From the IMG/VR virus record IMGVR_UViG_3300009183_004565: a stretch of DNA of 64,000 nt. The stretch is one strand, 5' to 3'. The notes below the pieces were generated by a model that ran no database searches, was not told the DNA's origin, and saw only the letters and a list, made by a program, of their open reading frames with translations. The DNA comes from a virus. Taxonomy: Duplodnaviria; Caudoviricetes. The translations under genes were made by a program, and so were the position numbers. This document shows positions 38,217 through 61,264 of this stretch, piece after piece (positions within the stretch are counted from its first letter, which is position 1; each line of letters begins with the position of its first letter).

Positions 38217-39426
38217 GTATAATATTCACAGTCATTACGAACATATCTTTTCTTTTTTAAAAACTGTTGTTAAAGATCCTGTACTTCTAAGTTTTTATCC
38301 ATTTGGCTCTACTAAATTTGAAAATGTTGAATACATGCATTGCAACGGTGATGGAACATCACCGGTAATAGTTTGCTATGATCAAGAACCAATATTGGAT
38401 AGTTGTGTTGAAACATTTAGACAAGTTAAACAAATGTATTCACCGGGCGGAGATCGAAGCATAATACTACTTAATACAGAAACAAATAGCAAAATAAAAA
38501 ACAAACTGCTAGAAGAATTTAAATTTGGCGATTGTTCTTGCTTCTTTCATATCTTTGCTGCAGCAGATTGGTATCGCGGGTACCAGCATTGTGTCGAATT
38601 AATAGACCCTTCAAAGCGTAAAATTAAAAAGAAATACATAACCTTTAATCGTATTACTGGTAACAGTCGAGCTTATCGTAGTCTTTTTGTTGCCGAACTT
38701 GATAAGAATAATCTAATAGAGCACGGGCATGTTAGTTATAGCGATACTTGTCCAGAACACGGACACTATAGCACAAGTATACACGAAATAATTGAAAAAC
38801 ACAATGTTTCTACGGAGTACGTGTTAGCATGTAAAACAATTTTGGATAGTATTACCTTTCCGTTGCGTATTGATTTTAAAGATACTGCTCTTATACCAAA
38901 CGGTAGCCAAACACTAAATGCTATACCAGAAATGATGGAAAGTTTTTTACATGTAGTAACTGAAACATGCTTCTGGGAAACTAAAGATCATTTAACTGAA
39001 AAAATATTTAAACCTATTGTGGCCAGACAACCTTTTGTATTACTTGGGTGTGCCAATAATTTAAAATATTTAAAAAACTACGGATTTAAAACGTTTGATT
39101 CCTGGTGGGATGAGAGTTACGATAAAATTCAAGATCCTGTAGAAAGAATTCAAGCTGTGGTAAAAATTATCAAAGACATATGTGCAATGCCCGAGGACGA
39201 ATTGGAAGCAACGCTTCGTGGCATGCAATATGTTTTAAATTACAATTACAATTTATTTTACAGTAAAGAATTTGTTCAACGTGAGTGGAATAATTTAAAA
39301 CAAAGTCTTACACAGGCAGTTGTTCAACATCCACCCCGCTCGCCTGGAGGAACTCCAATCCTAGATCATCTCTATATTTCTCTTGATAATACACCTGCTG
39401 AATACCAGACTGGTATATCAGTTTAG
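38215..39426 (+). CDS. Putative glycosyltransferase (GT-B, GT10/exostosin-like C-terminus)
   Basis: FLHVVTETCF...LTEKIFKPI...PFVLLG...GFKTF..WWDESYD. Confidence 0.5.
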   Translation: MYNIHSHYEHIFSFLKTVVKDPVLLSFYPFGSTKFENVEYMHCNGDGTSPVIVCYDQEPILDSCVETFRQVKQMYSPGGDRSIILLNTETNSKIKNKLLEEFKFGDCSCFFHIFAAADWYRGYQHCVELIDPSKRKIKKKYITFNRITGNSRAYRSLFVAELDKNNLIEHGHVSYSDTCPEHGHYSTSIHEIIEKHNVSTEYVLACKTILDSITFPLRIDFKDTALIPNGSQTLNAIPEMMESFLHVVTETCFWETKDHLTEKIFKPIVARQPFVLLGCANNLKYLKNYGFKTFDSWWDESYDKIQDPVERIQAVVKIIKDICAMPEDELEATLRGMQYVLNYNYNLFYSKEFVQREWNNLKQSLTQAVVQHPPRSPGGTPILDHLYISLDNTPAEYQTGISV

Positions 39427-40728: not shown

Positions 40729-41391
40729 TTAATTCCATTTTTGTATCCATTGATTGGATAATAAATTAAATTTACTTATATCTAAATTAACTTCGCCAAT
40801 CTGATAGTTGCTAATTAACTGAAATAATTGTTGTGCTAACTGGTTATTGTTACTCCTACTAAGGTGATTTGGTCTTTTGTCGTTAACGAGACTGCCATCT
40901 TTAGATGCTATTTCATCTAAGCTGATTGCTGATAAACTCGGAGAGACTTTCATACCATTAAGCACATATTTTTGATTCTGGGGAAACGAAAATAAATGTA
41001 CAACTTTAATGTTATTCCATTGTTGATTTATTTCTTCAAACCATTTTAACTGCGCCCAACTTAAAAACATTTCGTTGTGTATATACTTATAATATAAACC
41101 AATTGCACGATTTAACTCATTGTTTGACTCTAAATTTGAAAAATTTACTTGATTAATTTCCTCATCAGTTGTCGGTATACGTTGTGCATTTGTATGTACA
41201 AATACGATTATTTCACAGTTATCAATATGTTCCGGGGGCAATCTCTCTAAAAAACTTTTTACACTCCACCAAGAGCCTCCAGCTAAACCAAAATTAATAA
41301 GATTCATGTCTAGTGACTTAGCCAGTAGTCTAGGCCAGAAATTTGGAGTAGTACAAAAACTATCACCAACTATAATTATATTTTTCAACAC
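40729..41391 (-). CDS. SGNH-like protein
   Basis: IIVGDSFC, GLAGGS, RPNHLS. Confidence 0.55.
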   Translation of the reverse strand: MLKNIIIVGDSFCTTPNFWPRLLAKSLDMNLINFGLAGGSWWSVKSFLERLPPEHIDNCEIIVFVHTNAQRIPTTDEEINQVNFSNLESNNELNRAIGLYYKYIHNEMFLSWAQLKWFEEINQQWNNIKVVHLFSFPQNQKYVLNGMKVSPSLSAISLDEIASKDGSLVNDKRPNHLSRSNNNQLAQQLFQLISNYQIGEVNLDISKFNLLSNQWIQKWN

Positions 41392-41462
41392 TAAAACCTT
41401 TATTGTCTAATTTCTTTTAAAAGGCTGCTAGACTAGTAGTCCCATTATTAATATTTGAATGC

Positions 41463-42731
41463 TCATTGTTCTTCCAACCATGGAAATAAGCTACGCCAAT
41501 TGGTATTGCGTCTACGATCTATTTCATCTAAATAAATTTTTAATGTTTCGATCATATCATTGTTTGCTGGTGTAGTATCTACTTGTTTGTAAATTCCCGT
41601 CATATGCTCATAGTTTTGATTTTGATAATCTGTGTCTCTTGGCATTAAATTTAAAATTTGTTCAAATTCGTTTTTGAATAATCCAGGAACAAAAATATCA
41701 GGCATCATGTACGGAGGAGCATTTGCTGTCATGAAACTGAAACTGATTTTTCTTTTAGGATCATTGTTCCATGATGCTAGTCTAATGGTATTCCATTCAT
41801 TTATTTTGGCAATATATTCGGGCATTGTTTTAATGCTTAACGCATTAATTGCAGCATTTACACAAAGAACAATATCCTTGTCCAACAGATACTCCATGTT
41901 AGCAGTATACTCATTTAAATCTAATCCGTATCTAATATACTCTTGCTGTGGTCCCCAGCAATCCAAACTTCCGGTAATTTGCAATTCCTTAATTTTTTTA
42001 TCTTGTTTAAGTTTTATCATCTTATTGATAATATTTTTAAACTTATTAGGATTTACTTTTAAATTACTGATCAAAGTAAATCTCATATTAGGTGCTGGAA
42101 ATTTTTCAAAAAAATCTAAACACATTTCTAATTCAGGCTGATGAAAAGGTTCGCCACCCAGTATATGTAGATCTTGTAGGCCATGACCATATTTTTCTAA
42201 CCATTGAAAAAACTTTTCTCGCATTTGGTCATATTCTTTATTAAATCCTACTTGTTCAGTGGTCTTTAAAAGAATCTGCTTATTTTGAAAATTTCCAAAT
42301 CTATTATTTTCTGCTTCCCACATAGAACTAAAATGCGGTCCGCAATATAAACAACTCATGTTACATGTATTAGAAAAATAAACTTCTAGTATTTTTGGAG
42401 TTACAACATTTGTACTATTATCTTCAAGAAGTTCATCCGGAACTTCGTAATGCATGCTAGACAATTGAAATTGTCTGTCGCTAACACCTCCTGCTTCTTC
42501 TATTTTTTGACAGTATTCGCATCCTGCTTTTGGCCATTCGCCTTGGCGCATCATCTCTCGAGTTGCAATTTTACGAGGAGTATTATGAAATGAATCAAAT
42601 GTGTCAACTGTAATTTTATCGTGATTGACTCTATGACAACTGCTAGTGGTTCCTATGTTTAAAAAAACGGTGGACCAAGTCCATTTTAAAAGACACGCTG
42701 TATCTGATTTGATTGGGAATATTTGTTTCAA
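41463..42731 (-). CDS. Radical SAM protein with N-terminal SPASM/twitch-like domain (subtype B)
   Basis: CLLKW...SSCHR...CEYC; CNMSCLYC; GGEP. Confidence 0.85.
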   Translation of the reverse strand: MKQIFPIKSDTACLLKWTWSTVFLNIGTTSSCHRVNHDKITVDTFDSFHNTPRKIATREMMRQGEWPKAGCEYCQKIEEAGGVSDRQFQLSSMHYEVPDELLEDNSTNVVTPKILEVYFSNTCNMSCLYCGPHFSSMWEAENNRFGNFQNKQILLKTTEQVGFNKEYDQMREKFFQWLEKYGHGLQDLHILGGEPFHQPELEMCLDFFEKFPAPNMRFTLISNLKVNPNKFKNIINKMIKLKQDKKIKELQITGSLDCWGPQQEYIRYGLDLNEYTANMEYLLDKDIVLCVNAAINALSIKTMPEYIAKINEWNTIRLASWNNDPKRKISFSFMTANAPPYMMPDIFVPGLFKNEFEQILNLMPRDTDYQNQNYEHMTGIYKQVDTTPANNDMIETLKIYLDEIDRRRNTNWRSLFPWLEEQ

Positions 42732-44212
42732 CTTAATACCTTTACTTTATATAGTTGTTCAAATCTATCTGCGTCTACTCGGTCGTTGACCATTGGCTCA
42801 CCTCGAATATTTAAGCTAGTATTAAGTAACATAGGACAGTCAGTCATTACAAACCATTTCTCTAAGAGTTCTCTAATCCCTGAACCATCTCGTGGTACCG
42901 TTTGTACTCGGCTGGTCCCATCATAATGGCAGATAGCAGGAAACAAGTCAGGATACCAACAACGAGCAACTGACTGCATATAACGGCTAGTAGTCCACCC
43001 AGGGCTGAAATCAAAATACTGATCAGCCATCTCTTCCAATATGACCGGGGCAAAAGGTCTAAATTTTTGACGTCGTTTAATTTCATTTACACGATCCTTT
43101 ATGTCTGCACCGCGTGGATCTGCTAATAAACTACGATTGCCTAAGGCTCTTGGCCCAAATTCTGCACGACCGTTAGCAACACCAACAATGCCATTAGCCA
43201 GTAGGCAATCAAGAAGGGCATTAACTGGATACTGCCCAGGTATATCATGCCCAAGATAAGCATTGCGCCAGTTGAGACGATGACCGTAGGCCAGTGCCGC
43301 AGCACCAAGGCTGCTACCAGCATCACCAGGATTAGGCATAATCCATATATGTTCAAAGTATTCTCCTAAGTTTCTATTTGCTAAACAGTTAAGGGCAACA
43401 CCACCCATATAAACTAAATTTGTGCTCCATTTAAAATTTCTAGCACGACGCATTACATTATATACAAGAGTCTCTAATAGGTCTTGTGCTCCGGCGGCAA
43501 TGTCTGTATTGTGTACGTATTCAAGATAATCAGACGGGATACCAGCATGGAAGTTTTCCTTGAATAAAATGTCAACTTCGTCATGTACAAATCTATGACT
43601 CATTAAATCACTAATGTCTCGTTTACCATATGCACTCATGCCCATTAAGATATATTCATCCTCATTGGGTTTAAGGCCGGCACGTTCGGTCATTGCACTA
43701 TACATTAACCCTATGCTATGTGGATATCGTTGTCCCCATAATTTTTTATAGTGTGCCTGACCTCTACTATCATATTCTGCACCGTATATACTAATAGTGT
43801 CAGACTCGCCAATGGCATCTATTACTACCACTGTGGCACGATCATACGGACTGGTTTGAAAGCCAGCGGCAGCATGACTTAAATGATGGCCAAAGCTGAC
43901 TATGTTCTTGGGTGTATTACGTAACCAAGGTCGTGTTTGATCATGAACAATTTGTTTTACGGTTAACTTGTTTAGTTCGATGCCTTCGCCAGAAACTAAT
44001 CTACGTAATTGTTTACGCCAAGGGATTTCGTAATACGCAACGGTATCAAGTTCATACCCACATATTTCTTCCATTAGATCCGGAGAGATATCTGTATCGT
44101 TTTTTAATTTACTATAACGCTCACTATGTCCGGCAAACAGTATATCACCTCGACGATTAATTACACTAATCGCTGCGTCGTGAAAACCAGCCGAGATGCC
44201 TAATATGTTCAT
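42728..44212 (-). CDS. Carbamoyltransferase (NodU/CmcH family)
   Basis: GISAGFHDAA, HHLSHAAAG, GEYILMG-like DEYILMGMSAYG, GGVALNC, EFGPRALGNRS, RPFAP, LLNTSLN. Confidence 0.92.
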   Translation of the reverse strand: MNILGISAGFHDAAISVINRRGDILFAGHSERYSKLKNDTDISPDLMEEICGYELDTVAYYEIPWRKQLRRLVSGEGIELNKLTVKQIVHDQTRPWLRNTPKNIVSFGHHLSHAAAGFQTSPYDRATVVVIDAIGESDTISIYGAEYDSRGQAHYKKLWGQRYPHSIGLMYSAMTERAGLKPNEDEYILMGMSAYGKRDISDLMSHRFVHDEVDILFKENFHAGIPSDYLEYVHNTDIAAGAQDLLETLVYNVMRRARNFKWSTNLVYMGGVALNCLANRNLGEYFEHIWIMPNPGDAGSSLGAAALAYGHRLNWRNAYLGHDIPGQYPVNALLDCLLANGIVGVANGRAEFGPRALGNRSLLADPRGADIKDRVNEIKRRQKFRPFAPVILEEMADQYFDFSPGWTTSRYMQSVARCWYPDLFPAICHYDGTSRVQTVPRDGSGIRELLEKWFVMTDCPMLLNTSLNIRGEPMVNDRVDADRFEQLYKVKVLS

Positions 44213-44741
44213 TTATTTTTTCTGCTATTCGTTGATGTCCTAGTTCCAACGGATGACCACCAACACCCTTAGGACAGTCTCCCATCCATTCAACTAGTCC
44301 TTCTTTGGGCCATCCTGGCCATGGTAAGTTTGTTTCCCCTTGTGCCCACGTTTGTATACCAAATGCACTAACAAAAAAATGCGGCACTAAGCGCATATAC
44401 AAAAATTCATGCAGTAATTGAACTTGGGTTAAGAATTTCTTTTGAGCCCATTCTTCGTCCCAATCATGAAATACTTCATCAACTACTGCATTACCGTACC
44501 GACGATTACTAGTTGGTGTTAGGTGTTTATTTGATATTTCAATCCTGTTAGGAGTTGTCCAGGCTACAATAACTTTTAATTGATAATTGCTAGTGTCATT
44601 GACATAATCTACTGTACTACGCAATATATAATCATTACTGGCTCCTGCAACTGCAATATTAACAGAATTCTGTATCAGACTTGGCCAGGCGATAGGGCTT
44701 TCTTCGCCACTGGTAAAGCTACACCCGTTTACTAAAATCAT
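44166..44741 (-). CDS. SGNH-like protein
   Basis: LVNGCSFTSG, GASND, GGHPLELGH. Confidence 0.6.
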   Translation of the reverse strand: MILVNGCSFTSGEESPIAWPSLIQNSVNIAVAGASNDYILRSTVDYVNDTSNYQLKVIVAWTTPNRIEISNKHLTPTSNRRYGNAVVDEVFHDWDEEWAQKKFLTQVQLLHEFLYMRLVPHFFVSAFGIQTWAQGETNLPWPGWPKEGLVEWMGDCPKGVGGHPLELGHQRIAEKINEHIRHLGWFSRRSD

Positions 44742-44810
44742 TTGTAAATAAATGGATCTCTTTTACGTAATTCACGTAGTTTACGTCGATACTTGATTTC
44801 TAGTTTAATT

Positions 44811-45359
44811 CTATTGTAAACGTTTCGTAACCAGTTCATTGAATTTTCCTTTTATAAGGTCTGCTGCATCAGAATGGGCTTGTTCCAATGGATGTTGTTG
44901 TATACCGCACTTGTACTTATTCTCCACAGCCCACTGGTAAAAACCTCTTGGACTTTCTGTTTGGTCCTCCCCTTGGCCCGGAGGAAAGAAAAACCAGTTA
45001 CGGTAATCTAAGTTATCTGTTACTACGCAATTATCTGCACATGTAAACAAATACGGAATATTGTGATACAACAAATATTCTTCTAAATTTTTAATATGAA
45101 AATCACTGTCTAATGTATAATCTCTACTGGGCCAAGTCCAACACACAATAACAATGTCAACTTTGGACCAGGTCAAGTAATCACGTACACGTTGAGCTAT
45201 TTCTCTATTACCCAGTCCAGGGTATGCTGCACACAAGTAATCGTCGGCCAACAATGCAGGAAAGGTTCGACGACTGTACCCATCAGGGCCGCCATTGGGA
45301 CTATCAGCAAGTTCACTACCCCATACAAAACTATCACCTCCAGCTAGAACTGTAGTCAT
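44811..45359 (-). CDS. SGNH-like protein
   Basis: AGGDSFVWG, GLGNREI, QHPLEQAH. Confidence 0.6.
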   Translation of the reverse strand: MTTVLAGGDSFVWGSELADSPNGGPDGYSRRTFPALLADDYLCAAYPGLGNREIAQRVRDYLTWSKVDIVIVCWTWPSRDYTLDSDFHIKNLEEYLLYHNIPYLFTCADNCVVTDNLDYRNWFFFPPGQGEDQTESPRGFYQWAVENKYKCGIQQHPLEQAHSDAADLIKGKFNELVTKRLQ

Positions 45360-46458
45360 ATCCTGGCTTCATCATATCTATTTGCATCTGTTTATAATTA
45401 TTGTCCGACCAGCTATAATCAAATGTACTACTAACTCCATCTACTTCAATTTTATAGATATCCAAGTGACTGCTTAGTGTATTCCAAACATCTTGATAAT
45501 CTGTTGTACCAAAACTTGATTGTAAATCTATTTGTCCAATTGGTAAATACCCGCAACTTAATTTTGGGTCGCGATAATCTCTACCGTTGTCTGTTAACCA
45601 TTTTCTAAATTTATCTTGTTCAATGTTGTGCCACGGATGAGGGCCACCATACACAACATCATTTCCCCATTCAACATCAAATTCGCCGCTGTAATATTTT
45701 AACTCAGTAATTGCTTCGCACACTGTCGCTGTTAGTGGAGGTGCATCTTCATCACGGAACACTTCGTATACTGTTTTTCCTATTTGTGTCCAATGCATAT
45801 ATACTCCACCCAATACACGGTCATATCCATTAACAGAAAATAGTTTTCTATGTTCATCAGTTAATTCATATCGTTGAGCATTAATAAATGTTGTAATTTG
45901 ACTAGGACGCACCCAGAACGGCAATGTTGCAGCTTTACGCTGACTTAGAATCAAGTTTTCCATTTCATGGCAGATATTGTTTAACTGCCGAATAGCATAC
46001 TTTGTTTCATAGTCTGCCTTGCGATAGTACTCACTTAAATCCCAAACTGTACCTTGTAGTATTTCAAAATGATTATGCAATTTATTTAAGACTTCATGAT
46101 TGAGACCATTGTCTGCGTAATCAAATGCTACAACATTTTCTGTTGTATATACATCATCAATTTGATAATCCGTGAAAAAGTTATTGATAGTCGCTACGGC
46201 AGAATTTAATTCATTGCAAAGGTATTCTAGAGTTCTTGCTGTTTGCGGAAACCCCATAAAACAAAAATTCTTTTCTAGTAGATTTTTGTTAGTTAATAAC
46301 ACTTTTAACGCATCAATCCAATTTTTAGATAATTCGTTATTATGCGAGATTATATTATAATCAAATTGATCGTTATAATCCAATGGGTTGCGTAATACAA
46401 CTTTAACTGATGGCGTTCCACCACTCATATACATCTGCTCTTTTTGAAAGTATTTCAT
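45334..46458 (-). CDS. Hypothetical protein, His/Glu-motif family
   Basis: LHNHFE...CHEME; HWTQIGKT; FRKW...DPKLSCGYLPIG. Confidence 0.65.
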   Translation of the reverse strand: MKYFQKEQMYMSGGTPSVKVVLRNPLDYNDQFDYNIISHNNELSKNWIDALKVLLTNKNLLEKNFCFMGFPQTARTLEYLCNELNSAVATINNFFTDYQIDDVYTTENVVAFDYADNGLNHEVLNKLHNHFEILQGTVWDLSEYYRKADYETKYAIRQLNNICHEMENLILSQRKAATLPFWVRPSQITTFINAQRYELTDEHRKLFSVNGYDRVLGGVYMHWTQIGKTVYEVFRDEDAPPLTATVCEAITELKYYSGEFDVEWGNDVVYGGPHPWHNIEQDKFRKWLTDNGRDYRDPKLSCGYLPIGQIDLQSSFGTTDYQDVWNTLSSHLDIYKIEVDGVSSTFDYSWSDNNYKQMQIDMMKPGYDYSSSWR

Positions 46459-47719
46459 CCATAGTAATAGATTGACTACGAATAGCTTCTAATTGTAACA
46501 CGCGAGCCTTACCTCGAGCAATACCTAAACGGTATGCTTCTTCACCATATTGCTCTTGAAAAGTAGGGCGTGTTTTAAGTTGAACTAGTATATCCTTTAA
46601 CGGGCCGAGGGGTGTGGTTGGGCCATCCAAAATTTCATCTACCCATACATTTAATATCTTTCTAGGTAGTACTAAAGGTGACATAACTATGTCCGGGCTA
46701 AAACTAAAGACAACTTTGGCTAGTATGTCTACGCCCAAATCGTTACCTAACTGCTGTATATTACCAACTTCAAACATACCCGGAAGGGTAAGTGTAAAGT
46801 CCAATCTCATTTGACGTCTGTTTGTAGCGAGGCCAACTCCTCTTTTAAAGTTTTCAAGCCATTCTGTATAGTTAAGGCCTGTTCGTATATACTCTCCAAT
46901 TCTTTCTGTGCCATCGATGCTTGCACATATCTGCCAATCCCGTAACCTACAAAGTATATCACTGTACAAATCAATATTCCGATACCGTACGCGGCTAAGG
47001 TTTGTGTTATATCTTGCATAGACATTTGGTCCATCTCCTAGTTCAATTATACGCTGCATATACCGCCAATGTTGTTCGTACATTAACGGTTCTCCTCCCA
47101 CCCAGTACACTTCTTCGATACGGTGGTCCTCTACTGCTGCTGCGAACTCGGCTTCAATTTGAGTTGTTTGGAATTTTTCAATTTGATGTTTGATCTCGGG
47201 TTTCATCCAATTATTCTTTGGATCCGCCCAGTTGATCATGTTGTGTTGGCGTTGCTCACTTTCCCAAGCACTGCTTAACATGTCTCCACACATGCGACAT
47301 TTGAAGTTACAGAGATTACTGAATCTGTAATCCCACGATACTGGCTTCATTGTGGTATAGCCAGTTGCGTCTGTTTCTTCTACTATTTTATCATACTTAT
47401 GTCCGAATAATTGATTAAAATAACTGCGGTAAACGTCAGTGTTTAATAGTTTATCGTTACATACTTCACACTCAGATAATGTTTCACCGGCCATCATGCG
47501 GCGGCGCACACTGCGCATACGATCACTGTTCCAGTGTTGTTCTAATGTAACGGGAATATATTTTCCAGTACCAGCACTGGTATCAATATACTGTTCAAAG
47601 TTTTGTGCAGGCTCACGACTGGCGCAGCATAGCCTACGTTCAGTTTGCGGACTTAGATACGTATGCGTCCACGGTGCCATGCATAATGTAGTAGGTTTAG
47701 TTGAATTCAAGTTTTTCAA
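46403..47719 (-). CDS. Radical SAM protein with N-terminal SPASM/twitch-like domain (subtype A)
   Basis: CMAPW...LCC...CEVC; CNFKCRMC; GGEP; YNTN. Confidence 0.85.
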   Translation of the reverse strand: MKNLNSTKPTTLCMAPWTHTYLSPQTERRLCCASREPAQNFEQYIDTSAGTGKYIPVTLEQHWNSDRMRSVRRRMMAGETLSECEVCNDKLLNTDVYRSYFNQLFGHKYDKIVEETDATGYTTMKPVSWDYRFSNLCNFKCRMCGDMLSSAWESEQRQHNMINWADPKNNWMKPEIKHQIEKFQTTQIEAEFAAAVEDHRIEEVYWVGGEPLMYEQHWRYMQRIIELGDGPNVYARYNTNLSRVRYRNIDLYSDILCRLRDWQICASIDGTERIGEYIRTGLNYTEWLENFKRGVGLATNRRQMRLDFTLTLPGMFEVGNIQQLGNDLGVDILAKVVFSFSPDIVMSPLVLPRKILNVWVDEILDGPTTPLGPLKDILVQLKTRPTFQEQYGEEAYRLGIARGKARVLQLEAIRSQSITMDEILSKRADVYEWWNAIS

Positions 47720-48488
47720 ATTCTAAAATTGGTTGTTTTACGATATACATTAAGTCATCTAAATTTGTAACTTTTCCAATTACAGGATAGCCTGTGTATC
47801 TTAAGATTTTTTCTGGGCCATGTAGATGGTAAAAATTATTATCGTTCTTCTTAATATCGTCTAATAATTTTTGATGCTCTGTAAATTTTTTAAAATTATT
47901 AATGACAATATTGATCCCGGGTCTAATAACACTATGAAATTTACACGTCTGTGATATTTTTTGATAATCTTTTTCTAAATAAAGTTGCAACGGGCTTGCA
48001 CCAACAAATGGATATTGTAGTTTAATATCACCAATTGTTGTTGAATCTTGAAATTTAAAAAAATCGTCGATTGGTATTGTATTATTGTTATACCATTCAA
48101 TTTGTAACCAATCTTGTCTTGTCACTAAGTGATTTCTTCCTTCATTTAGTAAATGCAAGCACTGATGAATTTCGTGTACCAATTCGTCGCAATCTGCAGG
48201 TATACTATCAAACCCTTTTTCTAATAATACTTCAATGTCTTTATGTAACCTAGATGCAACTTCATGGTCGCCAGGTGTATAATCCCAATCCCAGCCAAGT
48301 TTATAGTTGGCTTCCTTAACTAAATCACTCATGTACTCAATGGTATATTTTGCTGGATCCCTAAAAATAGGCATTTGATTATTATAATTTTTGTAAAGTA
48401 AATTATAATAATTCTTGCCAGTTACAGAATCTTCTAATTCTACTGTTAGTGCAGGTAGATCCTTAAAAAAAATTTTAAAATCAAACAT
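47697..48488 (-). CDS. Hypothetical protein, His/Glu-motif family
   Basis: LHKDIE...IHQCLH; YPFVGASP; YTGYPVIGKV. Confidence 0.6.
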   Translation of the reverse strand: MFDFKIFFKDLPALTVELEDSVTGKNYYNLLYKNYNNQMPIFRDPAKYTIEYMSDLVKEANYKLGWDWDYTPGDHEVASRLHKDIEVLLEKGFDSIPADCDELVHEIHQCLHLLNEGRNHLVTRQDWLQIEWYNNNTIPIDDFFKFQDSTTIGDIKLQYPFVGASPLQLYLEKDYQKISQTCKFHSVIRPGINIVINNFKKFTEHQKLLDDIKKNDNNFYHLHGPEKILRYTGYPVIGKVTNLDDLMYIVKQPILEFEKLEFN

Positions 48489-49695
48489 AGCCCATTGCCC
48501 GTGCTATTTCCGGATGCGTATTAATAAAGTTCTGTTTTCTGTATGCATCAGTCTGTTGCATCTTACGACAAAATTCTTTACCATCGCTTCCAGCGCCATT
48601 TTTAATAAAGTTTATTATATTATTAATTTCAAGTTGATAACGATTAGATGACCAGAAAGTAGTTGTTAATTTATCAAGCACCAATTCTTGTGCAGTCTGA
48701 GTCATATATTGTATACTCATATGATCCGGACTATGCATCATATTAAAGTAAACGTCGCCAAAATTCTTAGTGTCTGCCCACGCTAACAATTCATCAAGAT
48801 AATACACATTTTGTATATTAACTGTAAAACATAATTGTGTAGTTATGTTGGGATACAGCAGTTGCATGCCATGAACTGAATCAATTATCGAATTAGCAGT
48901 ACCCCACTTTGCGCCGTATCTTTCGTATTCAAATCTATTGTTTACATTATCAATACTAAATGCAACGTCAACACGCCCAAAGTCTCTCCAAATTTCAACA
49001 AGATCCTGGGGCCATTGTGTAGCATTAGTGTTATAATGTATATCAATATTTTTGCTGTATCCTTGTGCTACTGCGTATTTTAATAGCTCAATATGTTCTT
49101 GTATTAACCAAGGTTCACCACCAGTAAACTCAAGATACTTAATATTGGGCAATAGTCTCTTTAAGTTTTCCCAGAAGTTCGTATCTGGATTACGCGGCCA
49201 CGAACCTTGTTTTAACCATTGATAAGCAATATGTTGTTTCTTATCAAAGTCTTTGGGCATGTACTCTAATTCTTCTACTGCCCATTTACTGCTAGACCAG
49301 GATCCACATATACGGCACTTAAGATTACAAATATTACCAAGTTTCAAATCAAGAAACCATAATTGGTCTGGATTATCATTATCCCAGTCGACGTCATGAT
49401 ACAATTCTTTTAAACGTATACGACTATTCATGCGTTTACTTGTTCTGCCGGCAGACTCCTCGTCCCAACATAGTTTACAAGTTTCTGGTTGTTCGCCAGC
49501 ACGAAATTGCCTACGAAGACGTTGCATGTATTCGCTATGATAAATTGTTTCTAAATTGTCTTTATTTAAATCAAACTTATCACCGTTGCTGTTTGTTATT
49601 TCCTCTCTGGCCAAACAACACGGTCTAGCAGTTCCGACTGGACTAGTTTCTATACTAATCCACGGCAACATACAAATTGTATTAGGCAAGATCAT
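48481..49695 (-). CDS. Radical SAM protein with N-terminal SPASM/twitch-like domain (subtype A)
   Basis: CMLPW...RPCC...CKLC; CNLKCRIC; GGEP; YNTN. Confidence 0.87.
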   Translation of the reverse strand: MILPNTICMLPWISIETSPVGTARPCCLAREEITNSNGDKFDLNKDNLETIYHSEYMQRLRRQFRAGEQPETCKLCWDEESAGRTSKRMNSRIRLKELYHDVDWDNDNPDQLWFLDLKLGNICNLKCRICGSWSSSKWAVEELEYMPKDFDKKQHIAYQWLKQGSWPRNPDTNFWENLKRLLPNIKYLEFTGGEPWLIQEHIELLKYAVAQGYSKNIDIHYNTNATQWPQDLVEIWRDFGRVDVAFSIDNVNNRFEYERYGAKWGTANSIIDSVHGMQLLYPNITTQLCFTVNIQNVYYLDELLAWADTKNFGDVYFNMMHSPDHMSIQYMTQTAQELVLDKLTTTFWSSNRYQLEINNIINFIKNGAGSDGKEFCRKMQQTDAYRKQNFINTHPEIARAMGYV

Positions 49696-51001
49696 TTAGT
49701 TCTGGGAATACCTTCCAAAAATTTTCTTTTCTTAATATATCTAATTTTTCTATTTCTTCTCTAAATCTTGGTAATAAGTGACTGGCATCATTTGCTTGCA
49801 TTAGATTAATTAAACTCTTATACCCAGTGGTTGCACGTTGCAATGTATCCTGTGGTTCTAACCATTCAATATGTTTTTGATACGCAGGTATCACTACAGT
49901 ATCTTTAAACTTGGGTGGCAGAATATCTACACGATACCACTCAGGGCCTTGGCATACGTTAACATTAAAATCTTTGGCTTTAATAAGACCTAAATCTGTC
50001 CACTCACGATGAAAATCTAATATATGCAGTACATTCATTGCACTAATTGTTGCAGCAACATAAAAATCAACATGCGGAACTTCTTCTATCATTCTTCTTC
50101 TGTTATTAATTGCCTGTTCCCAGTCAGTTCCTTTACGCATTAATTCTGCACGTTCTCCTGATGCATCTAAACTAGCACCAACACTAATATTTTTAAAATG
50201 TTTCCAGTAATTAAAAACGTGTTTATCTTTAAATGCAAGTTCACTAAAGTTTGTGTTATACTGAATACGTACATCTGTTTTTCCGTGCTCGATAAGTTTC
50301 TCTAACATGAAATAATGTTCTTTCATTATCAGCGGTTCACCGCCGGCAAAATAAACTTGTTCAAGGTATGGAATATGCGGAAGCATTTGCTCGAGCATAG
50401 AATCTTCGTCCCCGGCAGTGTATTCAACTCTTGCCATTTCTCTTCCAAGTACATCAGGTTTAGTGTTGTATAGTTTGACATGATCGTTATACCAGTTGCT
50501 GCTGAATATAGGACCACAGCTCCGGCAACTAAAATTGCATAAATTACTAAACCTAACATCCCAATATCTTATTTTAAATTCTGGGTGTGTTCCGTCTGCT
50601 TCTGTTTGATTTATCTCATTTATTAAATGTCCATAGTTACGATTACTATCATTTCGCATACTAAAAAATCCATTTTTTTCTTGCTCGTAACACTTGGTAC
50701 ATTCTTTACATGATCGATCGTTCAACATGTTTGTTCGGATTGTTTTATATGGATCTTGGTTCCATACTTCAATCATTTTATTCTTTCTAAGGTCACCTAA
50801 CGGTTCCCAATATTCTGCTAAACAACAAGGATAGACTCTACCATCGGGATATGCATGCATATGCACCCACGGTAGCATACAAAATGTTTTACTTTTGGTT
50901 AATTTATATAATTGATCATCGCTAAGTTTATCTTGATCAATGAAATAAGGAACACGTTCATTATAGACATATCCTTTGTTATAGAATCCTTTTACACTCA
51001 T
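49682..51001 (-). CDS. Radical SAM protein with N-terminal SPASM/twitch-like domain (subtype A)
   Basis: CMLPW...YPCC...CTKC; CNFSCRSC; GGEP; YNTN. Confidence 0.87.
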   Translation of the reverse strand: MSVKGFYNKGYVYNERVPYFIDQDKLSDDQLYKLTKSKTFCMLPWVHMHAYPDGRVYPCCLAEYWEPLGDLRKNKMIEVWNQDPYKTIRTNMLNDRSCKECTKCYEQEKNGFFSMRNDSNRNYGHLINEINQTEADGTHPEFKIRYWDVRFSNLCNFSCRSCGPIFSSNWYNDHVKLYNTKPDVLGREMARVEYTAGDEDSMLEQMLPHIPYLEQVYFAGGEPLIMKEHYFMLEKLIEHGKTDVRIQYNTNFSELAFKDKHVFNYWKHFKNISVGASLDASGERAELMRKGTDWEQAINNRRRMIEEVPHVDFYVAATISAMNVLHILDFHREWTDLGLIKAKDFNVNVCQGPEWYRVDILPPKFKDTVVIPAYQKHIEWLEPQDTLQRATTGYKSLINLMQANDASHLLPRFREEIEKLDILRKENFWKVFPELNDLA

Positions 51002-52350
51002 AATGAATTATACCAATCTGCTATAGCAGGAAATGTTTCTGTAAAATTTTTATTGCGCCGTTGATTATACTGTTGATGAAATTGTTTAAAGTCGTTACGC
51101 AACTTGGGCAAGTCAAATGCCTCGCTGTGTGGAGTTTTAACTACATCAAGATAGTCTATCAGGCGTTGTACATGATTACGTTCGTGTTCGTGTAACCATT
51201 CGTTATCGTTGGCTGCTAACCATGCTTCTAGATTATTTTTGTGTCGTGTTCTGTGTTCGTCAGGCAATACCAATGGACTTTGAAAACTAGGAAAACGTAA
51301 AATATTTAGTGTAAAGTTCGGAAAGTCTTTTCCGTAACACATTTTCCACTGTACCATACAGTCCAAGAACTCAGTTAAACTTTCCAAACACAATGCATTA
51401 ATGGTACACATAATGTGTAATCCACGCAATTTAACTACACTGTAGTTGTCGCATATGAGTTCTATACTATTAGCCCAATCGTCCCAAACCAATCCGTCTC
51501 TAATATACTCTGCATGACTTCCGATAGATTCGTTACTAGTGTATAGGTCAATTGGTGCGTCCACACTATTAAATAAGCGATCGATATCAACTTGTGTTCC
51601 CAAATTACTGTTAATTGCTAATCTTGTTTTACTTTTACCACGATTAGTCTTAAACCAATCTAGCAGTTGCCAGGTATATCCTGACATTAAAGGCTCACCA
51701 CCGGTGATACGCAATTCGTCTAGTGTACTATGGAGATCCGACTCCCACCACTTAAAAAACGCTTCCACATACGGATTACTCTCGCCAAATCTATAAAGTT
51801 GACTACTGTCATGAGTGTGAGTAAAGTGATTCCTACCGTCTGACACCAAACCAGTGTAGGGTCCATTATCTCTGATATCTTTAACCCATGTTGAACTGAA
51901 AGCAGGATTGCAGTAAGAGCAAGCAAATTGGCAAGTACGGTCAAAACTAATTTCAAGAGTGCGAAGATTAATATCTTCGGTGTATGATGTTTTGTATGCA
52001 TGATTTAAATCCTCGTCTGAATATATTACTGTTTTGTATACTCGATCGCTAATGTTATCTCTACCTATATCCTCTATTTTCCAACAATACTCACAGCCTT
52101 CAGGTCTGTCGCCTTTTTGCATTAGGCGTCGCTCTGCTTTCTTTTTGTGTGTATTATGTAATGTTCGAGGATTTTCAATCACATCTTCTACTTCAATCTT
52201 GTGTGGCAATGGGTGATGACAACTTGTGGTCATACCGCTGCCCAACCATATAGTAGCGTTGTACCATTTTGCTCCGCAGAATGAATCTGACTTGATGTCA
52301 ATCACTCTACGCTTATATTGTAAATCTGTTTCGTTATTAATTCTGGGCAT
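50998..52350 (-). CDS. Radical SAM protein with N-terminal SPASM/twitch-like domain (subtype B)
   Basis: CGAKW...TSCHH...CEYC; CQFACSYC; GGEP. Confidence 0.87.
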   Translation of the reverse strand: MPRINNETDLQYKRRVIDIKSDSFCGAKWYNATIWLGSGMTTSCHHPLPHKIEVEDVIENPRTLHNTHKKKAERRLMQKGDRPEGCEYCWKIEDIGRDNISDRVYKTVIYSDEDLNHAYKTSYTEDINLRTLEISFDRTCQFACSYCNPAFSSTWVKDIRDNGPYTGLVSDGRNHFTHTHDSSQLYRFGESNPYVEAFFKWWESDLHSTLDELRITGGEPLMSGYTWQLLDWFKTNRGKSKTRLAINSNLGTQVDIDRLFNSVDAPIDLYTSNESIGSHAEYIRDGLVWDDWANSIELICDNYSVVKLRGLHIMCTINALCLESLTEFLDCMVQWKMCYGKDFPNFTLNILRFPSFQSPLVLPDEHRTRHKNNLEAWLAANDNEWLHEHERNHVQRLIDYLDVVKTPHSEAFDLPKLRNDFKQFHQQYNQRRNKNFTETFPAIADWYNSL

Positions 52351-53716
52351 GATATCTACATTCCTCCCAGAACTCTCGCATTTCCGGGAACGTTTTTAAA
52401 AAGTCTGTTTCTCTACGTTTATCGTGCTCGTTAAAGAATCTATAAAAGTCAGCACGTTGTAGTTTAACATATTCTGGATCTAATTTGCTACCTTCCTTCA
52501 TCCAATCAATAGTTCTCCGCATACGCTGTACTTCATAATCTTTGAATCCTTGAAATGGACGGTCAGGTCGTTCTAAATTTTCTTCCATCCAATTGGCTAC
52601 ATCAGTTAATCGTTGTGCATAAACCGGCGGAAGTATTTGTAAACTTTGCCACGTGGGTTGTCTCAATAGTGGTGTATCAAACCAAACACGCTGATACGTA
52701 TCACTATGTAATCGTCTATAATTTAAAATATCCTGTAGTAAATTTTTAATACCTAATACACTAAGATTGTTCATTGTTATAATAAAAGTAAGACTGTTTC
52801 TTTTTGTTACTTCTATTAGATACTTTGCACAATTATATTGAAGTCTAGAATAATTTAATCCATGCCTTATATATTCTGCATGTTCAGGAATTCCGGAGTC
52901 TACACTAACATACTGCATGAAATGTTCAATTTGTGTGTCACATAATCTTTGAACGTAGTCAATATACTTGTTCATTAACTGTGGATCTACACTAAAATTA
53001 CTAGTAACATCAATATGCAAATCCGGTTTAGGCAATGCCAATACATAATCAAATACCTTAAAGGTATTACGATCCATCAACGGTTCACCACCAGTCATCC
53101 TAAAATGTTTTAGTTTTGGGTAAAGAGTGGGCCACCACGCCCAAAAAGCATCTACATAGGGGTTGTCATTGCGAACAGGTATAGGCTTGCGGCGGCCATT
53201 AAAATGGATCGGGTCATTATGAGGTTTACTAGTAGGGTAGGCTCCCCATCGTTGGATTTCGTCTTCCCACGACGAACTAAACTGTGGACTACAGTAACTA
53301 CAGCGAAGGTTACAAGCATGATTAAAATTAACTTCCACATAGGAAGGAACGGCATCTTCATCTCCTGTCAAATTTAGTATTGTATCAAAGTGTTCAGCTG
53401 CCCAGGGCTCACCACTACGGTAATGTCTGTCACTTAGGTTACCTAAGTCTTCTTGTGTCCAGCAATAACTACATTCTTGTGGACGTTCATTGCGTAACAT
53501 AATTTTACGCTGCTCTTTTTTATATGGTGTATTGTGTAATGCACCAGGATTATCTTTTAGTAATGTGGCATCTATTTCGTGTAGCGGAGGATGATAGCAA
53601 CTGTTGGTTAATCCTGTAGGTAGGTGTAGGCTAACCTGCTGCCACTTGGCAAGGCACAGAGCTTCGCCCAGTTTCGCCTTCATCTGCTCTGCAGCAGACA
53701 TGAAGTCACTTACCAT
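52337..53716 (-). CDS. Radical SAM protein with N-terminal SPASM/twitch-like domain (subtype B)
   Basis: CLAKW...NSCYH...CSYC; CNLRCSYC; GGEP. Confidence 0.87.
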   Translation of the reverse strand: MVSDFMSAAEQMKAKLGEALCLAKWQQVSLHLPTGLTNSCYHPPLHEIDATLLKDNPGALHNTPYKKEQRKIMLRNERPQECSYCWTQEDLGNLSDRHYRSGEPWAAEHFDTILNLTGDEDAVPSYVEVNFNHACNLRCSYCSPQFSSSWEDEIQRWGAYPTSKPHNDPIHFNGRRKPIPVRNDNPYVDAFWAWWPTLYPKLKHFRMTGGEPLMDRNTFKVFDYVLALPKPDLHIDVTSNFSVDPQLMNKYIDYVQRLCDTQIEHFMQYVSVDSGIPEHAEYIRHGLNYSRLQYNCAKYLIEVTKRNSLTFIITMNNLSVLGIKNLLQDILNYRRLHSDTYQRVWFDTPLLRQPTWQSLQILPPVYAQRLTDVANWMEENLERPDRPFQGFKDYEVQRMRRTIDWMKEGSKLDPEYVKLQRADFYRFFNEHDKRRETDFLKTFPEMREFWEECRYHAQN

Positions 53717-54639
53717 CCTTCAATCTTTCTAATAACATCAATCTCTGTCATCATAATCTCACTGTTACGTTGACCAGTACTATAATGGTGTTTAAAGAAC
53801 TTACTTTGTTCTGCGGTGTATGTGACTATAGGTAATCCTAAACGTTTAGTCAATGACTCTTCTATATTATTACAGCCTTCTACCGGATCTTCTTTACTAA
53901 AACTTGCCCATAGTTTTTCTAATACATCAAAATCTTGTACATAATGATGATCCCAGTTTTCAAGCATAATCATAAATGTACCGAGCCTTGCACCATACAT
54001 AGCCCATAGACCGTTTTCAACATCGGCACCAACACTTTGCCATATACACAAATGATCGTAGTTACGATTGTTAACTTTTTCTTCAAATTCTGCCAGTGTG
54101 GGTTTGTGTCCACGATCCAAACACATCTTAACACCTTCACGGAATCCTGCTCGCCAGGCCTGCTTAGGACTGCCATTGGGATATGTAGTGCTATAACAAT
54201 TATGCATTGCTATATACTTTGGATCAAAGCAAAACTCTACACTGGTTTCTTCATCTCCAAGACTGGCTTCATGTGTACGCATTGTATTAACAAAGTCTTT
54301 TGTCCAACAACTTAGACCACCATTACCGTATCGAAGCCCATTGATAACATTACGTGCCTTCCATCTAAAAACTTGGTCATGATTCTTTTCGTTAAGAGAT
54401 AATTGTAAATTAAAAAACTCAGGATCTGGAATGTTATCTCCATCAATAAGAACAAATCGTTCTGTGTCACTTGCAGCCGCTGCCGCTTTATGTGCAGCAT
54501 CACTTCCTTTAATTCCGTCAACACGTTTAGCCCACGGTATCATGTTTTGAATTTTGATCCAAAACTCTTCTTTTTTAGGTTCATCATATGTTAAAAATAT
54601 GCAATCTAAGTCTGCTATATCAACTATTTGTTTGTTCAT
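53710..54639 (-). CDS. GT-A-like glycosyltransferase
   Basis: DCIFLTYDEP, GSDAAHKAAA, VLIDGD (DxD), GNGG, WRAGFREGVK. Confidence 0.6.
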   Translation of the reverse strand: MNKQIVDIADLDCIFLTYDEPKKEEFWIKIQNMIPWAKRVDGIKGSDAAHKAAAAASDTERFVLIDGDNIPDPEFFNLQLSLNEKNHDQVFRWKARNVINGLRYGNGGLSCWTKDFVNTMRTHEASLGDEETSVEFCFDPKYIAMHNCYSTTYPNGSPKQAWRAGFREGVKMCLDRGHKPTLAEFEEKVNNRNYDHLCIWQSVGADVENGLWAMYGARLGTFMIMLENWDHHYVQDFDVLEKLWASFSKEDPVEGCNNIEESLTKRLGLPIVTYTAEQSKFFKHHYSTGQRNSEIMMTEIDVIRKIEGW

Positions 54640-55003
54640 AAAATTCTATTTCTAAATATTCCTCATTGAGGCCTAAGGCTATTGCTGCATATCCCTTTAC
54701 TACTGGTTGCCCTGCATTACTCTTTTTTAATTTTACACGATTTGGTGTATGCGGATCAAGTATCTTTAGTTGATTGTTTACTACACGTAGCAGTTGAGTA
54801 TTTTGTCTTTGATACTCGTCGGGGTGAGTTAGTATAATATAGTTACTTCCCTCTGGATGGCTTGTTTCCCATAATCCAATTATGGTTCCATCTTCATTGT
54901 AGTACAATCTATATTCTTTAATTAGCCGAGGACGGTTACGATCCATTTCCTCAGCTAATTGTAACCCTTTAATGAATTCCTGCCATGGATCTAAAGTAGT
55001 CAA
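54620..55003 (-). CDS. Hypothetical protein
   Basis: 127 aa ORF in coupled series. Confidence 0.5.
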   Translation of the reverse strand: MTTLDPWQEFIKGLQLAEEMDRNRPRLIKEYRLYYNEDGTIIGLWETSHPEGSNYIILTHPDEYQRQNTQLLRVVNNQLKILDPHTPNRVKLKKSNAGQPVVKGYAAIALGLNEEYLEIEFYEQTNS

Positions 55004-55811
55004 TCATTTCCTCCTTTGGAAAAGCTTTATCGTGGTAGTGTAGTGGATGATATTGATTTATGTTATTGATACGTACAATACCATCTGTGAACTCTGTAAC
55101 AAACACATCAGTGAAACTACAATCCTCTGTGTAACCATTAATAGCAGGTTTCATATGCACAAAATTAATAAAGTCTGCAGATGGTATTGTACACCATTCT
55201 GTACCAATTATGTTTGCTGCTAATGCATACACCACATCTGTACTAGGATAGTCATCGTCGCAATGTGCCAATGCCGTTTTTACTGTGGACCAATTTTCAA
55301 ATATCTGAGCTGCTGTGCTAAAAAAGTTTGTTGCAGTCTGGCTGAATCTAAAATACATTAGTCCATTATACACATCAGGTAAATGATTATCATCGAATAG
55401 TTTTCTATACTTTCTGGATGTGGCTGTTTCTTGTTTATAATTTTTGCATCCCGTACTTAGTACAACATCACGTAATCTAAATGTGGTCCACCAATGGTCA
55501 ATTGATCTTGGCAGTAACAAATCACTTTCAAGTTTAATTGTTTCTTTAAACGGTGTGTGCCAAAATGCTTGTACTTCTAATCCATATGGACCTGTTGTAC
55601 TATCCGGAACTTCAATAATATAATCAAATACTGCCTGATGCTGTTCAGTTATTATTGCTGCTGTGCTAGTATCGACTATTACAGCAAAAGATTTAATTTT
55701 TTGCGTAGCCTTTACATTCAATGCTTGCAGATATGCCAAACGTAGATAATCAACGTCCTCTGTGTTAGCGGCAATAGTTAAAAATCCTTGTTGCTCTTTA
55801 TGTCTACTCAT
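54969..55811 (-). CDS. GT8-like glycosyltransferase
   Basis: TIKLESDLL (DxD position), VYNGLMYF, STDVVYA, HMKP. Confidence 0.55.
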   Translation of the reverse strand: MSRHKEQQGFLTIAANTEDVDYLRLAYLQALNVKATQKIKSFAVIVDTSTAAIITEQHQAVFDYIIEVPDSTTGPYGLEVQAFWHTPFKETIKLESDLLLPRSIDHWWTTFRLRDVVLSTGCKNYKQETATSRKYRKLFDDNHLPDVYNGLMYFRFSQTATNFFSTAAQIFENWSTVKTALAHCDDDYPSTDVVYALAANIIGTEWCTIPSADFINFVHMKPAINGYTEDCSFTDVFVTEFTDGIVRINNINQYHPLHYHDKAFPKEEMIDYFRSMAGIH

Positions 55812-56577
55812 TGATAAATTTAATGAAGTCTTCGCTTTGCAAATATTTCTTGCTCATCACATGTAAGTTAGTAACAGGTACTACGTATGCACGATCAACA
55901 TCGCGTATAATTAATTGATTATCTTTTTTAACAATTGATTCTATAGTTTGATCAACTGCTAACATACTACCAGGTATACTGTTTGTGCCAATTGTATATC
56001 CGTTTAATATGATATCAGCCATTGCAAATGCGTAATCATTGCGATAATTGCGTTCTTGTACATTAAACAGTAATTTGTAGTATCTGTAATTTTCTTGTAT
56101 CCTGGCAACTAAATTAAAAAACTGTTCGGCACGATCTGTTTTTCTAAATGCAAATACAGTGGCCCATATATATGGTAAACTGTTTGGGCCCATTGTAGTT
56201 GGCCATTCAACTGTTAACGCATGACTGTTTCTTTGTAGTATATAATCCCAATCAGTTTGGAATATTTGTAATAACGAATTGTCAAGTATCAAGTAATCTG
56301 CATCAATGACTATAGTTTCATCATATGGACTTAGTTCGTATGCTGCATGCCTTCCAAAGTTTTTCCACTCTACAAACTTTCCAAGATCAATATCATAGCG
56401 TGTATTTTGTAAACTTGTATTGATGTCTGTAATTAAAGTTGTAGGTAACTTTAAGATTTTCTCGGCTAGTTTTAAAGTCTTTTCTGCAATGCTTATGTAA
56501 TCTGTTGTTTCTGTATTACAAGCAAAAGCAACTATACCTCTAGACTTTTCGGATCTTTTTGAGTTGCTCATATTCAT
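55804..56577 (-). CDS. GT8-like glycosyltransferase
   Basis: SPYDETIVIDADYL, WATVFAF, RNDYAFA, HVMSK. Confidence 0.65.
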   Translation of the reverse strand: MNMSNSKRSEKSRGIVAFACNTETTDYISIAEKTLKLAEKILKLPTTLITDINTSLQNTRYDIDLGKFVEWKNFGRHAAYELSPYDETIVIDADYLILDNSLLQIFQTDWDYILQRNSHALTVEWPTTMGPNSLPYIWATVFAFRKTDRAEQFFNLVARIQENYRYYKLLFNVQERNYRNDYAFAMADIILNGYTIGTNSIPGSMLAVDQTIESIVKKDNQLIIRDVDRAYVVPVTNLHVMSKKYLQSEDFIKFINE

Positions 56578-56851
56578 TATGCCAACGATTCATTACTTGT
56601 TGATAGTGCTGTTGTGCTGTAACTAGAAATACTTGTCGATCTACAGCAATAGGATTTTGATACGCATCTTCTATATATAATTCGTCAATTGGCCACGTTT
56701 TTACAAACGCAATCAATTCCGGAGTAATTTTAAATAACCCCCCGGCATGTGCTAGATGTAAATCCGTTTGAATTTTTTCCCGCAGAATTTTTTTATTAAT
56801 TTGAAAATCAGTTGCCTGGCGGACTTCACTGACTAAAGATTCAATATTCAT
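56540..56851 (-). CDS. Hypothetical protein
   Basis: First ORF after the promoter at 56880-56909. Confidence 0.55.
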   Translation of the reverse strand: MNIESLVSEVRQATDFQINKKILREKIQTDLHLAHAGGLFKITPELIAFVKTWPIDELYIEDAYQNPIAVDRQVFLVTAQQHYQQVMNRWHNEYEQLKKIRKV

Positions 56852-61261: not shown

Positions 61262-61264
61262 GGG

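Follow-up and report, generated by a model that had tools for sequence, protein, structure and literature searches.

Six N-terminal-twitch radical SAM paralogues in one phage operon and their possible part in sugar tailoring

What would a phage do with six radical S-adenosylmethionine (SAM) enzymes of one kind, and on what would they act? The question is raised by a 64,000-nucleotide (nt) stretch of the Caudoviricetes record IMGVR_UViG_3300009183_004565, from a giant, uncultured phage of lake origin and called the window here, in which six radical SAM genes, labelled R1 to R6, lie on the minus strand between positions 41463 and 53716 and encode proteins of 404-459 amino acids (aa). An earlier reading of this DNA (the original prediction) had placed here six enzymes with Cys residues ahead of the radical SAM core, and the minus-strand open reading frames (ORFs) agreed with it exactly, four Cys preceding the core in each. 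We favour, at a probability of about 0.5, the reading that R1-R6 would be distinct, active enzymes of one family which edit a sugar-derived substrate alongside the sugar enzymes of the same operon.

A twitch-first radical SAM array

The four genes R6 (52337-53716, 459 aa), R5 (50998-52350, 450 aa), R4 (49682-51001, 439 aa) and R3 (48481-49695, 404 aa) overlap their neighbours by 4-14 nt, and R3 is separated from R2 (46403-47719, 438 aa) by a single 263-aa ORF, so that five of the genes are nearly contiguous, as had been noticed earlier. R1 (41463-42731, 422 aa) lies 3.7 kb past R2, where it overlaps a carbamoyltransferase gene by 4 nt. All six proteins scored above the curated cut-off of 170 bits of the NCBIfam model NF033640 (N_Twi_rSAM, twitch domain-containing radical SAM protein; 398 positions), with 233.8 bits for R1, 281.3 for R2, 333.5 for R3, 405.1 for R4, 278.1 for R5 and 307.8 for R6, and the matches start at model positions 1-3 and end at 385-398. 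Since all six matches run from end to end above the cut-off, the observation is not due to chance.

The catalytic motifs are intact. Each protein contains one CxxxCxxC motif, located between residues 123 and 155, as well as a GGEP motif, and a six-way alignment revealed C137, C141 and C144 of the radical SAM cluster and G208-G209-E210-P211 of the SAM-binding motif to be invariant in all six. Similarly, C13, C32, C84 and C87 (R2 numbering), N-terminal to the CxxxCxxC core, are invariant in six out of six. The two predicted subtype motifs could be read as described: subtype A, CM(A/L)PW...CC, in R2 (CMAPW...CC), R3 and R4 (both CMLPW...CC), and subtype B, C(L/G)(L/A)KW...SC(H/Y)(H/R), in R1 (CLLKW...SCHR), R5 (CGAKW...SCHH) and R6 (CLAKW...SCYH). 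The auxiliary domain, at about residues 5-105, lies ahead of the radical SAM core (about residues 120-350), and not C-terminal to it as in the BtrN-type order; Pfam SPASM matches the N-terminus of R2, R3 and R4 (residues 8-104 overall; 8-77 in R3 and 41-104 in R4). Conserved Cys residues outside the core number four in subtype B and five in subtype A, in place of the seven of the SPASM motif, which leaves room for one auxiliary cluster and not for two as in the SPASM domain. The single-site auxiliary pattern C-x17-18-C ... CxxC, as in BtrN-type twitch enzymes, is present.

The reversed Cys order is thus real but not new, as it is already curated in NF033640, which has the same domain order (twitch first, then the CxxxCxxC core) and shows no difference from R1-R6 at the level of the family; the window contributes an operon that unites six members. 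Judged by their sequences, R1-R6 are further members of a known, functionally unexplored family, and the predicted circular permutation of the twitch domain to the N-terminus is a catalogued architecture. Mapping of the paralogues to a known family of single function would have spoken against the original prediction; this is not the case, as NF033640 is a subfamily-level model without an assigned function, covering 9,928 clusters at 50% identity (E up to 1e-3). No protein with the architecture of R1-R6 was found among reviewed and solved proteins, and a literature search found no paper citing NF033640. A conserved N-terminal extension of about 140 aa with the motif ERII..D...LQ..LN..DISNFFV was seen in the family members P0125, P0128, P0133 and about 16 others (alignment A11); it gave no Pfam match, no clear PDB family and no likeness to the small operon ORFs, and showed weak partial matches to Arf GTPases.

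A characterised counterpart of the auxiliary domain is found in BtrN, the 2-deoxy-scyllo-inosamine dehydrogenase of butirosin biosynthesis (PDB 4M7S/4M7T) and the archetype of twitch enzymes. A profile of R4-like (PW..CC-type) sequences aligned over positions 6-84 with BtrN residues 161-242 (E 1.6e-6), with four of four Cys matched, and the BtrN twitch Cys and their spacing align with the N-terminal Cys of R1-R6. The twitch domain follows the core in BtrN but precedes it in R1-R6, a circular permutation, while the cores are distantly alike; the R4 model has, in addition, a helical domain at its C-terminus that spans about 75 residues. In the BtrN structure the four twitch Cys reportedly all ligate the auxiliary cluster, and this fully ligated cluster takes up an electron. 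Since all four ligate it in BtrN, the comparison suggests that the auxiliary cluster of R1-R6 may likewise serve in electron transfer.

A seventh NF033640 member is present on the same record beyond the window (L082:4176-5330, minus strand, equivalent to G000:C1; 384 aa, 203 bits), about 3.9 kb past the window end, where it adjoins a DNA polymerase gene. It is of the CPDLF..CC variant, and further motif variants beyond A and B, such as this CxDLF..CC type, occur in the family.

Separately conserved paralogues and natural fusions

The paralogues turned out to be neither redundant nor decayed, as seen from separately conserved orthologue sets, clades of their own and a fixed gene order. Pairwise identity among R1-R6 is 17-25%, while related jumbo-phage contigs contain orthologues of each of R2-R6, 45-95% identical and identically ordered. 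The arrangement R6-R5-R4-R3-x-R2-(374 aa)-...-carbamoyltransferase is preserved in L001, a 368-kb JGI contig with nine radical SAM genes, and in L007 (NZ_JBBAKG010000001.1, 183 kb) and L008 (...003.1, 148 kb), two contigs binned as a Haliscomenobacter metagenome-assembled genome (MAG). L007 also carries a homologue of the tail-fibre-like gene at 57876-59378 of the window, and for this reason L007 and L008 are probably jumbo-phage contigs; their binning could, but need not, reflect the host. R5 has orthologues of 95% identity in L001, 63-66% in L007/L008 and 53-56% in L032, a Bacteriovoracaceae MAG, and those of R2 are 89%, 68-71% and 42% identical, respectively. L032 has eight family members, including copies like R2, R3, R4, R5 and R6, which supports a set of distinct paralogues, R2-R6 being conserved individually across the phage contigs and L032.

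In metagenomes, homologues of R4 number more than 5,600, with 77-98% identity among the best 120, and R6 has hundreds of orthologues at 77-95%; orthologues of both occur on contigs of up to 368 kb. R1 has 3,294 homologues at 50-87%, mostly at 50-65%, several of them on contigs of 240-350 kb. A megablast search of the 12-kb region against cultured phages gave no match.

In a tree of 149 family members, R2-R6 each fall in a well-supported clade of their own, first with the phage orthologues and then with bacterial copies; the R6 clade holds the copies of L001, L007, L008 and L032. The rows of the KW..SC type, 21 in number, group together in one clade, and the motif switches between A and B only once on the tree, which makes the two subtypes real lineages. 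R1, the most divergent copy, belongs to the B clade and has a long branch, and gp202 of Ralstonia phage RsoM2USA, the single family member of that phage, is near kin of R5. By these signs each paralogue is under selection. In the Elusimicrobia MAG MJ-2014_bin-0981 (L029-L079, 14 contigs), about 40 family copies stand in head-to-tail arrays with many ORFs far longer than the 400-aa domain; the one scanned for domains (L077:4373-7609, 1,078 aa) begins with an extended stretch of TPR repeats.

How the paralogues might be coupled was indicated by natural fusions. In a 50%-identity library of family members, an R4-like half is followed by an R3-like half within a single protein in four independent cases (P0121, P0124, P0126 and P0262), which mirrors the gene order of the array. 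In P0121 (805 aa), identity to R4 is 60% and residues 404-805 are 47% identical to R3; its gene sits behind an R5-like gene. These fusions are Rosetta-stone evidence that R4 and R3 may work together. The A/B heterodimers proposed in the original prediction gained nothing in support, and the natural fusions join two subtype A enzymes. A complex prediction for R4 with R3 scored 0.00, which counts neither for nor against binding. An AlphaFold2 model of P0121 built from an 8-row alignment had both halves folded, with a predicted local distance difference test (pLDDT) score of 84; its predicted TM-score (pTM) of 0.54 leaves the packing of the halves poorly defined.

Gene neighbourhood and the candidate substrate

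On what, then, would such enzymes act? The carbamoyltransferase gene that overlaps R1 (42728-44212, minus strand) is of the NodU/CmcH/TobZ type, with Pfam Carbam_trans_N and Carbam_trans_C matches. Between it and R2 lie two SGNH-like (DUF6071-like) paralogues (44166-44741 and 44811-45359, minus strand) with GDSF/GCSF N-terminal and HP...GH C-terminal motifs. Their DUF6071 match, at E 3.6e-5, is below the Pfam cut-off; jackhmmer groups the pair with gp200, gp201 and gp203 of RsoM2USA, with L010, L007 and L008, and with Bacteroidota neighbours of N_Twi_rSAM genes. Directly upstream of R6 is the gene of a 309-aa protein (53710-54639, minus strand) that is 92% identical in L001, 64% in L007 and 60% in L008. 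It has a LIDGDN motif, and its three nearest Atlas clusters all scored 0.99, one being a viral cluster named 'Glycosyltransferase 2-like' and the other two having no name; a PDB profile search gave no match. A GT-A (GT2-like) glycosyltransferase is therefore a probable assignment, to be taken as a lead, not proof. On the plus strand, just upstream, PHROG and Pfam matches identified a nucleotide-sugar epimerase (33360-34331), a 2-oxoglutarate (2OG)-Fe(II) oxygenase (34335-34925) and a DegT-like aminotransferase (34898-36022).

We then surveyed 452 neighbouring genes at 76 genomic loci with homologues. Sugar-related neighbours included GT1/GT4 glycosyltransferases at 10 loci, carbamoyltransferases at 7, epimerases/dehydratases at 5, Wzm at 4 and Wzt at 3; other neighbours were PhyH at 8 loci and radical SAM proteins with a C-terminal SPASM domain at 6, along with WelO5-like, GDSL, B12-binding radical SAM, SDR and DegT genes. 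The GT1/GT4, Wzm/Wzt and DegT genes stand beside the Bacteroidota homologues. A carbamoyltransferase gene within 6 kb of an N_Twi_rSAM gene was found in the window and at 13 other loci, from phages, Gammaproteobacteria, Bdellovibrionota and Bacteroidota, and members of the SGNH-like family accompany N_Twi_rSAM genes in the window and at nine other loci, including RsoM2USA, L010, L007, L008 and four Bacteroidota genomes. One family member, P0150, is fused to a GT2 domain; the short contigs of P0150 and P0129 held no informative neighbours. Reduced modules were found in two cultured phages. In RsoM2USA (L003, MG752970.1, 123467-129043) the B-type gp202 is flanked by the SGNH-like gp203 and gp201/gp200, followed by the carbamoyltransferase gp199; gp199-203 are all annotated as hypothetical proteins, and the genome paper of this phage makes no mention of them. 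The second module is gp303-308 of Vibrio phage K566.

To our knowledge, sugars or small molecules, and not proteins, are the substrates of the characterised enzymes of the carbamoyltransferase, SGNH-like and glycosyltransferase families. Taken together with the co-occurrence described above, these activities favour a sugar-derived substrate. The interpretation in the original prediction is partly supported, in that the sugar role contemplated there fits the gene neighbourhood in phage and bacteria as well as the alignment of the twitch domain with BtrN, a sugar-type dehydrogenase. The CxxxCxxC [4Fe-4S] cluster would split SAM to give a 5'-deoxyadenosyl radical, and a second [4Fe-4S] cluster, with Cys as all four ligands, is predicted in the N-terminal, permuted twitch domain. 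By analogy with BtrN, a hydrogen atom would be abstracted from a sugar carbon, and oxidation, epimerisation, dehydration or decarboxylation would follow. The six enzymes may act in succession, or at different positions, on a nucleotide-sugar, a lipid-linked or polymeric glycan, or an aminocyclitol-like unit from the same operon. Its building and decorating would fall to the glycosyltransferase-like proteins, the SGNH-like proteins as esterases or acyltransferases, the carbamoyltransferase and the nearby epimerase, aminotransferase and 2OG oxygenase. We infer in this way the class of substrate and the type of reaction, and also that the product would reside on the host surface or the virion.

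Several points weigh against this interpretation. The substrate class is read from the neighbourhood alone, no NF033640 member having an assayed function, and the assignments of glycosyltransferases in the operon are weak. The Bacteroidota loci are mutually related, so that their counts are not independent, and the multi-copy arrays of Bdellovibrionota stand isolated amid housekeeping genes and have few sugar genes near them. In the Halobacteriovoraceae and Oligoflexia arrays, a 227-234-aa ORF (L024:11218-11922 and L063:11215-11898) has by eye the look of a degenerate GT2 (LIINEASTDRS, FINEGWED) and no Pfam match. Fusions to TPR, Sel1 or ankyrin repeats are common in the family, and such repeats usually bind proteins. 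Lastly, the nearest folds include the protein and peptide maturases CteB, anSME and SkfB at the same Z as BlsE and DesII, enzymes of sugar-tailoring pathways that act on nucleoside or nucleotide sugars.

This last point came from an AlphaFold2 model of R4 (pLDDT 93, pTM 0.90), for which Foldseek against the PDB, the Swiss-Prot part of the AlphaFold database (AFDB) and VIA wide returned the generic SPASM/twitch group with tied scores and no specific fold neighbour. VIA Z was 12.8 for BlsE, 12.4 for CteB, 11.8 for both MoaA and SkfB, 11.5 for anSME and 10.9 for DesII. BlsE, the top VIA match, superposed with a root-mean-square deviation of 3.4 over 218 residues at 16% sequence identity, its auxiliary domain being placed differently, and both BlsE and DesII are tied with MoaA, CteB and viperin. 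The SPASM maturases (anSME, CteB, SkfB, SuiB, PqqE and MftC) are alike in the fold of the core (Foldseek E 4e-6 to 1e-3, template modelling (TM) score 0.29-0.38, VIA Z 9.4-12.4). They differ in having seven auxiliary Cys and two auxiliary clusters, whereas R1-R6 have four or five such Cys and lack a RiPP (ribosomally synthesised and post-translationally modified peptide) recognition element (RRE), a precursor gene and a C-terminal auxiliary domain.

The presence of CteB, SkfB, anSME and SuiB among the best fold matches would fit an alternative, in which, as the original prediction also allowed for structural proteins, the six enzymes modify proteins of the tail fibre, virion or host post-translationally by anSME-like (formylglycine) chemistry or by thioether- or epimer-forming chemistry of the SPASM type. 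We consider it improbable, though the likeliest of the alternatives. It would agree with the location of the array in the tail-fibre (host recognition) region, next to the tail-fibre-like genes at 57876-62380, and with the repeat fusions, as well as with a Sel1-like ORF inside the L032 array. Yet the peptide-maturase matches are no better than those to BlsE, MoaA and DesII, the family recurs with carbamoyltransferase, SGNH-like and glycosyltransferase genes, and P0150 is fused to GT2. There is no RRE or PqqD match (Pfam, E up to 0.1). Nor could a short precursor gene be fitted in, as the only intergenic gaps from 41391 to 57876 measure 71, 69, 65 and 14 nt, which bears out the earlier remark that no short precursor peptide was obvious. 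The small ORFs beside bacterial arrays look like spurious low-complexity frames, not precursor genes. Because of the missing RRE, the gaps of at most 71 nt and these spurious-looking frames, a RiPP maturase role of R1-R6 is unlikely.

The fold matches to BlsE and DesII, the alignment of the twitch domain with BtrN and the presence of a TobZ/NodU-type carbamoyltransferase and a DegT-type aminotransferase are compatible with an operon whose product is a free small molecule of sugar or aminocyclitol origin, similar to an aminoglycoside or nucleoside, with radical SAM roles of BtrN, DesII or BlsE type. A radical SAM gene does lie by an inosamine amidinotransferase gene and a DegT/AHBA-synthase-like gene in cyanophage S-SCSM2R (PMC12801897). 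However, the operon holds several glycosyltransferase-like genes, the Wzm/Wzt exporters by the bacterial homologues point to a polymer, the analysis turned up no inositol or cyclitol synthase and, in the phage, no exporter, and the fold scores are tied with those of unrelated radical SAM enzymes. A free product is accordingly rated below protein modification, as a rather remote prospect.

Finally, the window has a 7-deazaguanine locus with a presumed QueE gene and a B12 radical SAM gene, and hypermodification of phage DNA or nucleotides tied to that locus might be proposed for R1-R6. The predicted count of eight radical SAM genes in the window is plausible: a gene with B12-binding and Radical_SAM domain matches stands at 13375-14880, while the presumed QueE of the original prediction (16307-17149) is a candidate with a weak Radical_SAM match (E 1e-4, under the Pfam cut-off). 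A deoxycytidine monophosphate (dCMP) deaminase gene at the end of the operon, thymidylate synthase and dihydrofolate reductase genes nearby, and weak viperin-like profile matches would go along with such a role. But some 25 kb separate the array from the deazaguanine genes, which are on the opposite strand, the bacterial homologues lie in polysaccharide-type loci or alone and not with DNA-modification genes, and the viperin matches cover only the generic radical SAM core. A part in DNA modification is the least supported of the explanations and seems very improbable.

Other genes of the operon and the meaning of the array

The region has several further genes. The 263-aa ORF between R3 and R2 (47697-48488, minus strand) had no Pfam, NCBIfam or PHROG match and no homologue in the fetched loci. 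The gene of the 374-aa protein after R2 (45334-46458, minus strand) is kept directly behind R2 in L001, L007 and L008 at 39-60% identity and has relatives in Bacteriovoracaceae L065 and L067; no family or fold match was obtained for it from Pfam, a PDB profile search or an Atlas search with its own model (pLDDT 0.36). A 297-aa ORF just upstream of the seventh family member has scattered motifs in common with the 374-aa protein (hhalign E 0.03). We considered the 263-aa, 374-aa and 297-aa ORFs, situated by R3/R2, R2 and the seventh gene, as one partner family, which stays unproven, as hhalign gave E 0.03-0.09 at less than 2% probability and jackhmmer did not join them.

Two paralogous ORFs upstream of the array (54969-55811 and 55804-56577, minus strand) are possibly GT8-like; a joint profile with their phage orthologues gave a weak N-terminal match to glycogenin (E 0.07). 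The operon also encodes an APS-kinase-like protein and a weakly cytidylyltransferase-like one. On the plus strand, a 403-aa ORF (38215-39426), conserved in L007, L008 and L001, has an HLTEKTFKP motif with invariant T-E-K, which we take to be fucosyltransferase-like; the fucosyltransferase match itself is very weak (E 1.5), and the protein is a possible glycosyltransferase of that kind. Two more members of the SGNH-like family are present in the window, at 17714-18391 by the 7-deazaguanine locus and at 32166-33128 by the epimerase gene.

The tail-fibre-like genes (57876-62380) flank the operon. A sigma-70-like promoter candidate, TTTACA-18-TATAAT (56880-56909, minus strand), lies in the 65-nt gap ahead of the operon, before 56540-56851, one of three gaps of 65-71 nt; it matches at 11 of 12 positions and has the top score of the region, although the overall count of such sites is not above chance. 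It hints that the RNA polymerase of the host may transcribe the genes as a single long unit. The T4-type late-promoter motif TATAAATA occurred 0 times on both strands of the window (1-64000), against 8.7 ± 2.9 expected from shuffles, despite the tail-fibre genes.

Radical SAM cassettes have been reported from the host recognition cluster of pelagimyophages, a hypervariable region of tail-fibre and glycosyltransferase genes (Zaragoza-Solas et al. 2020, PMC7029224), and a marine T4-like genome has 12 radical SAM genes (Nishimura et al. 2017, PMC5332604). The setting of these T4-like aquatic myophage cassettes matches that of the window in its tail fibres, glycosyltransferases and radical SAM genes, a likeness of setting alone; the two papers merely noted the genes, without a family name, the permuted architecture, the paralogue set or the fusions. 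New here are the Cys-for-Cys alignment with BtrN, the R4-R3 fusions and the bacterial orthologue set, as well as the association with carbamoyltransferase and SGNH-like genes across lineages, the survey of fusion partners and a minimal version of the module, seen in phages that are in culture.

With its six or seven paralogues, compactly arranged, strongly conserved and accompanied by probable partner enzymes, the phage operon gives an entry to the chemistry of NF033640, and the reduced modules of cultured phages (RsoM2USA gp199-203 and K566 gp303-308) would be tractable for enzymology. A sugar-tailoring role would help explain why radical SAM cassettes occur in the host-recognition regions of aquatic T4-like phages. 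We offer, as a tentative and more specific proposal that we hold to be doubtful, that R6-R5-R4-R3-R2, with R1, might form a radical tailoring line in which each enzyme performs a different, undescribed C-H functionalisation on one glycan, with R4 and R3 physically coupled, to place a heavily rearranged sugar on the infected cell or the virion, in a jumbo-phage lineage that ranks with the most abundant of fresh water. If this were true, a family of about 10,000 clusters would have its first known function.

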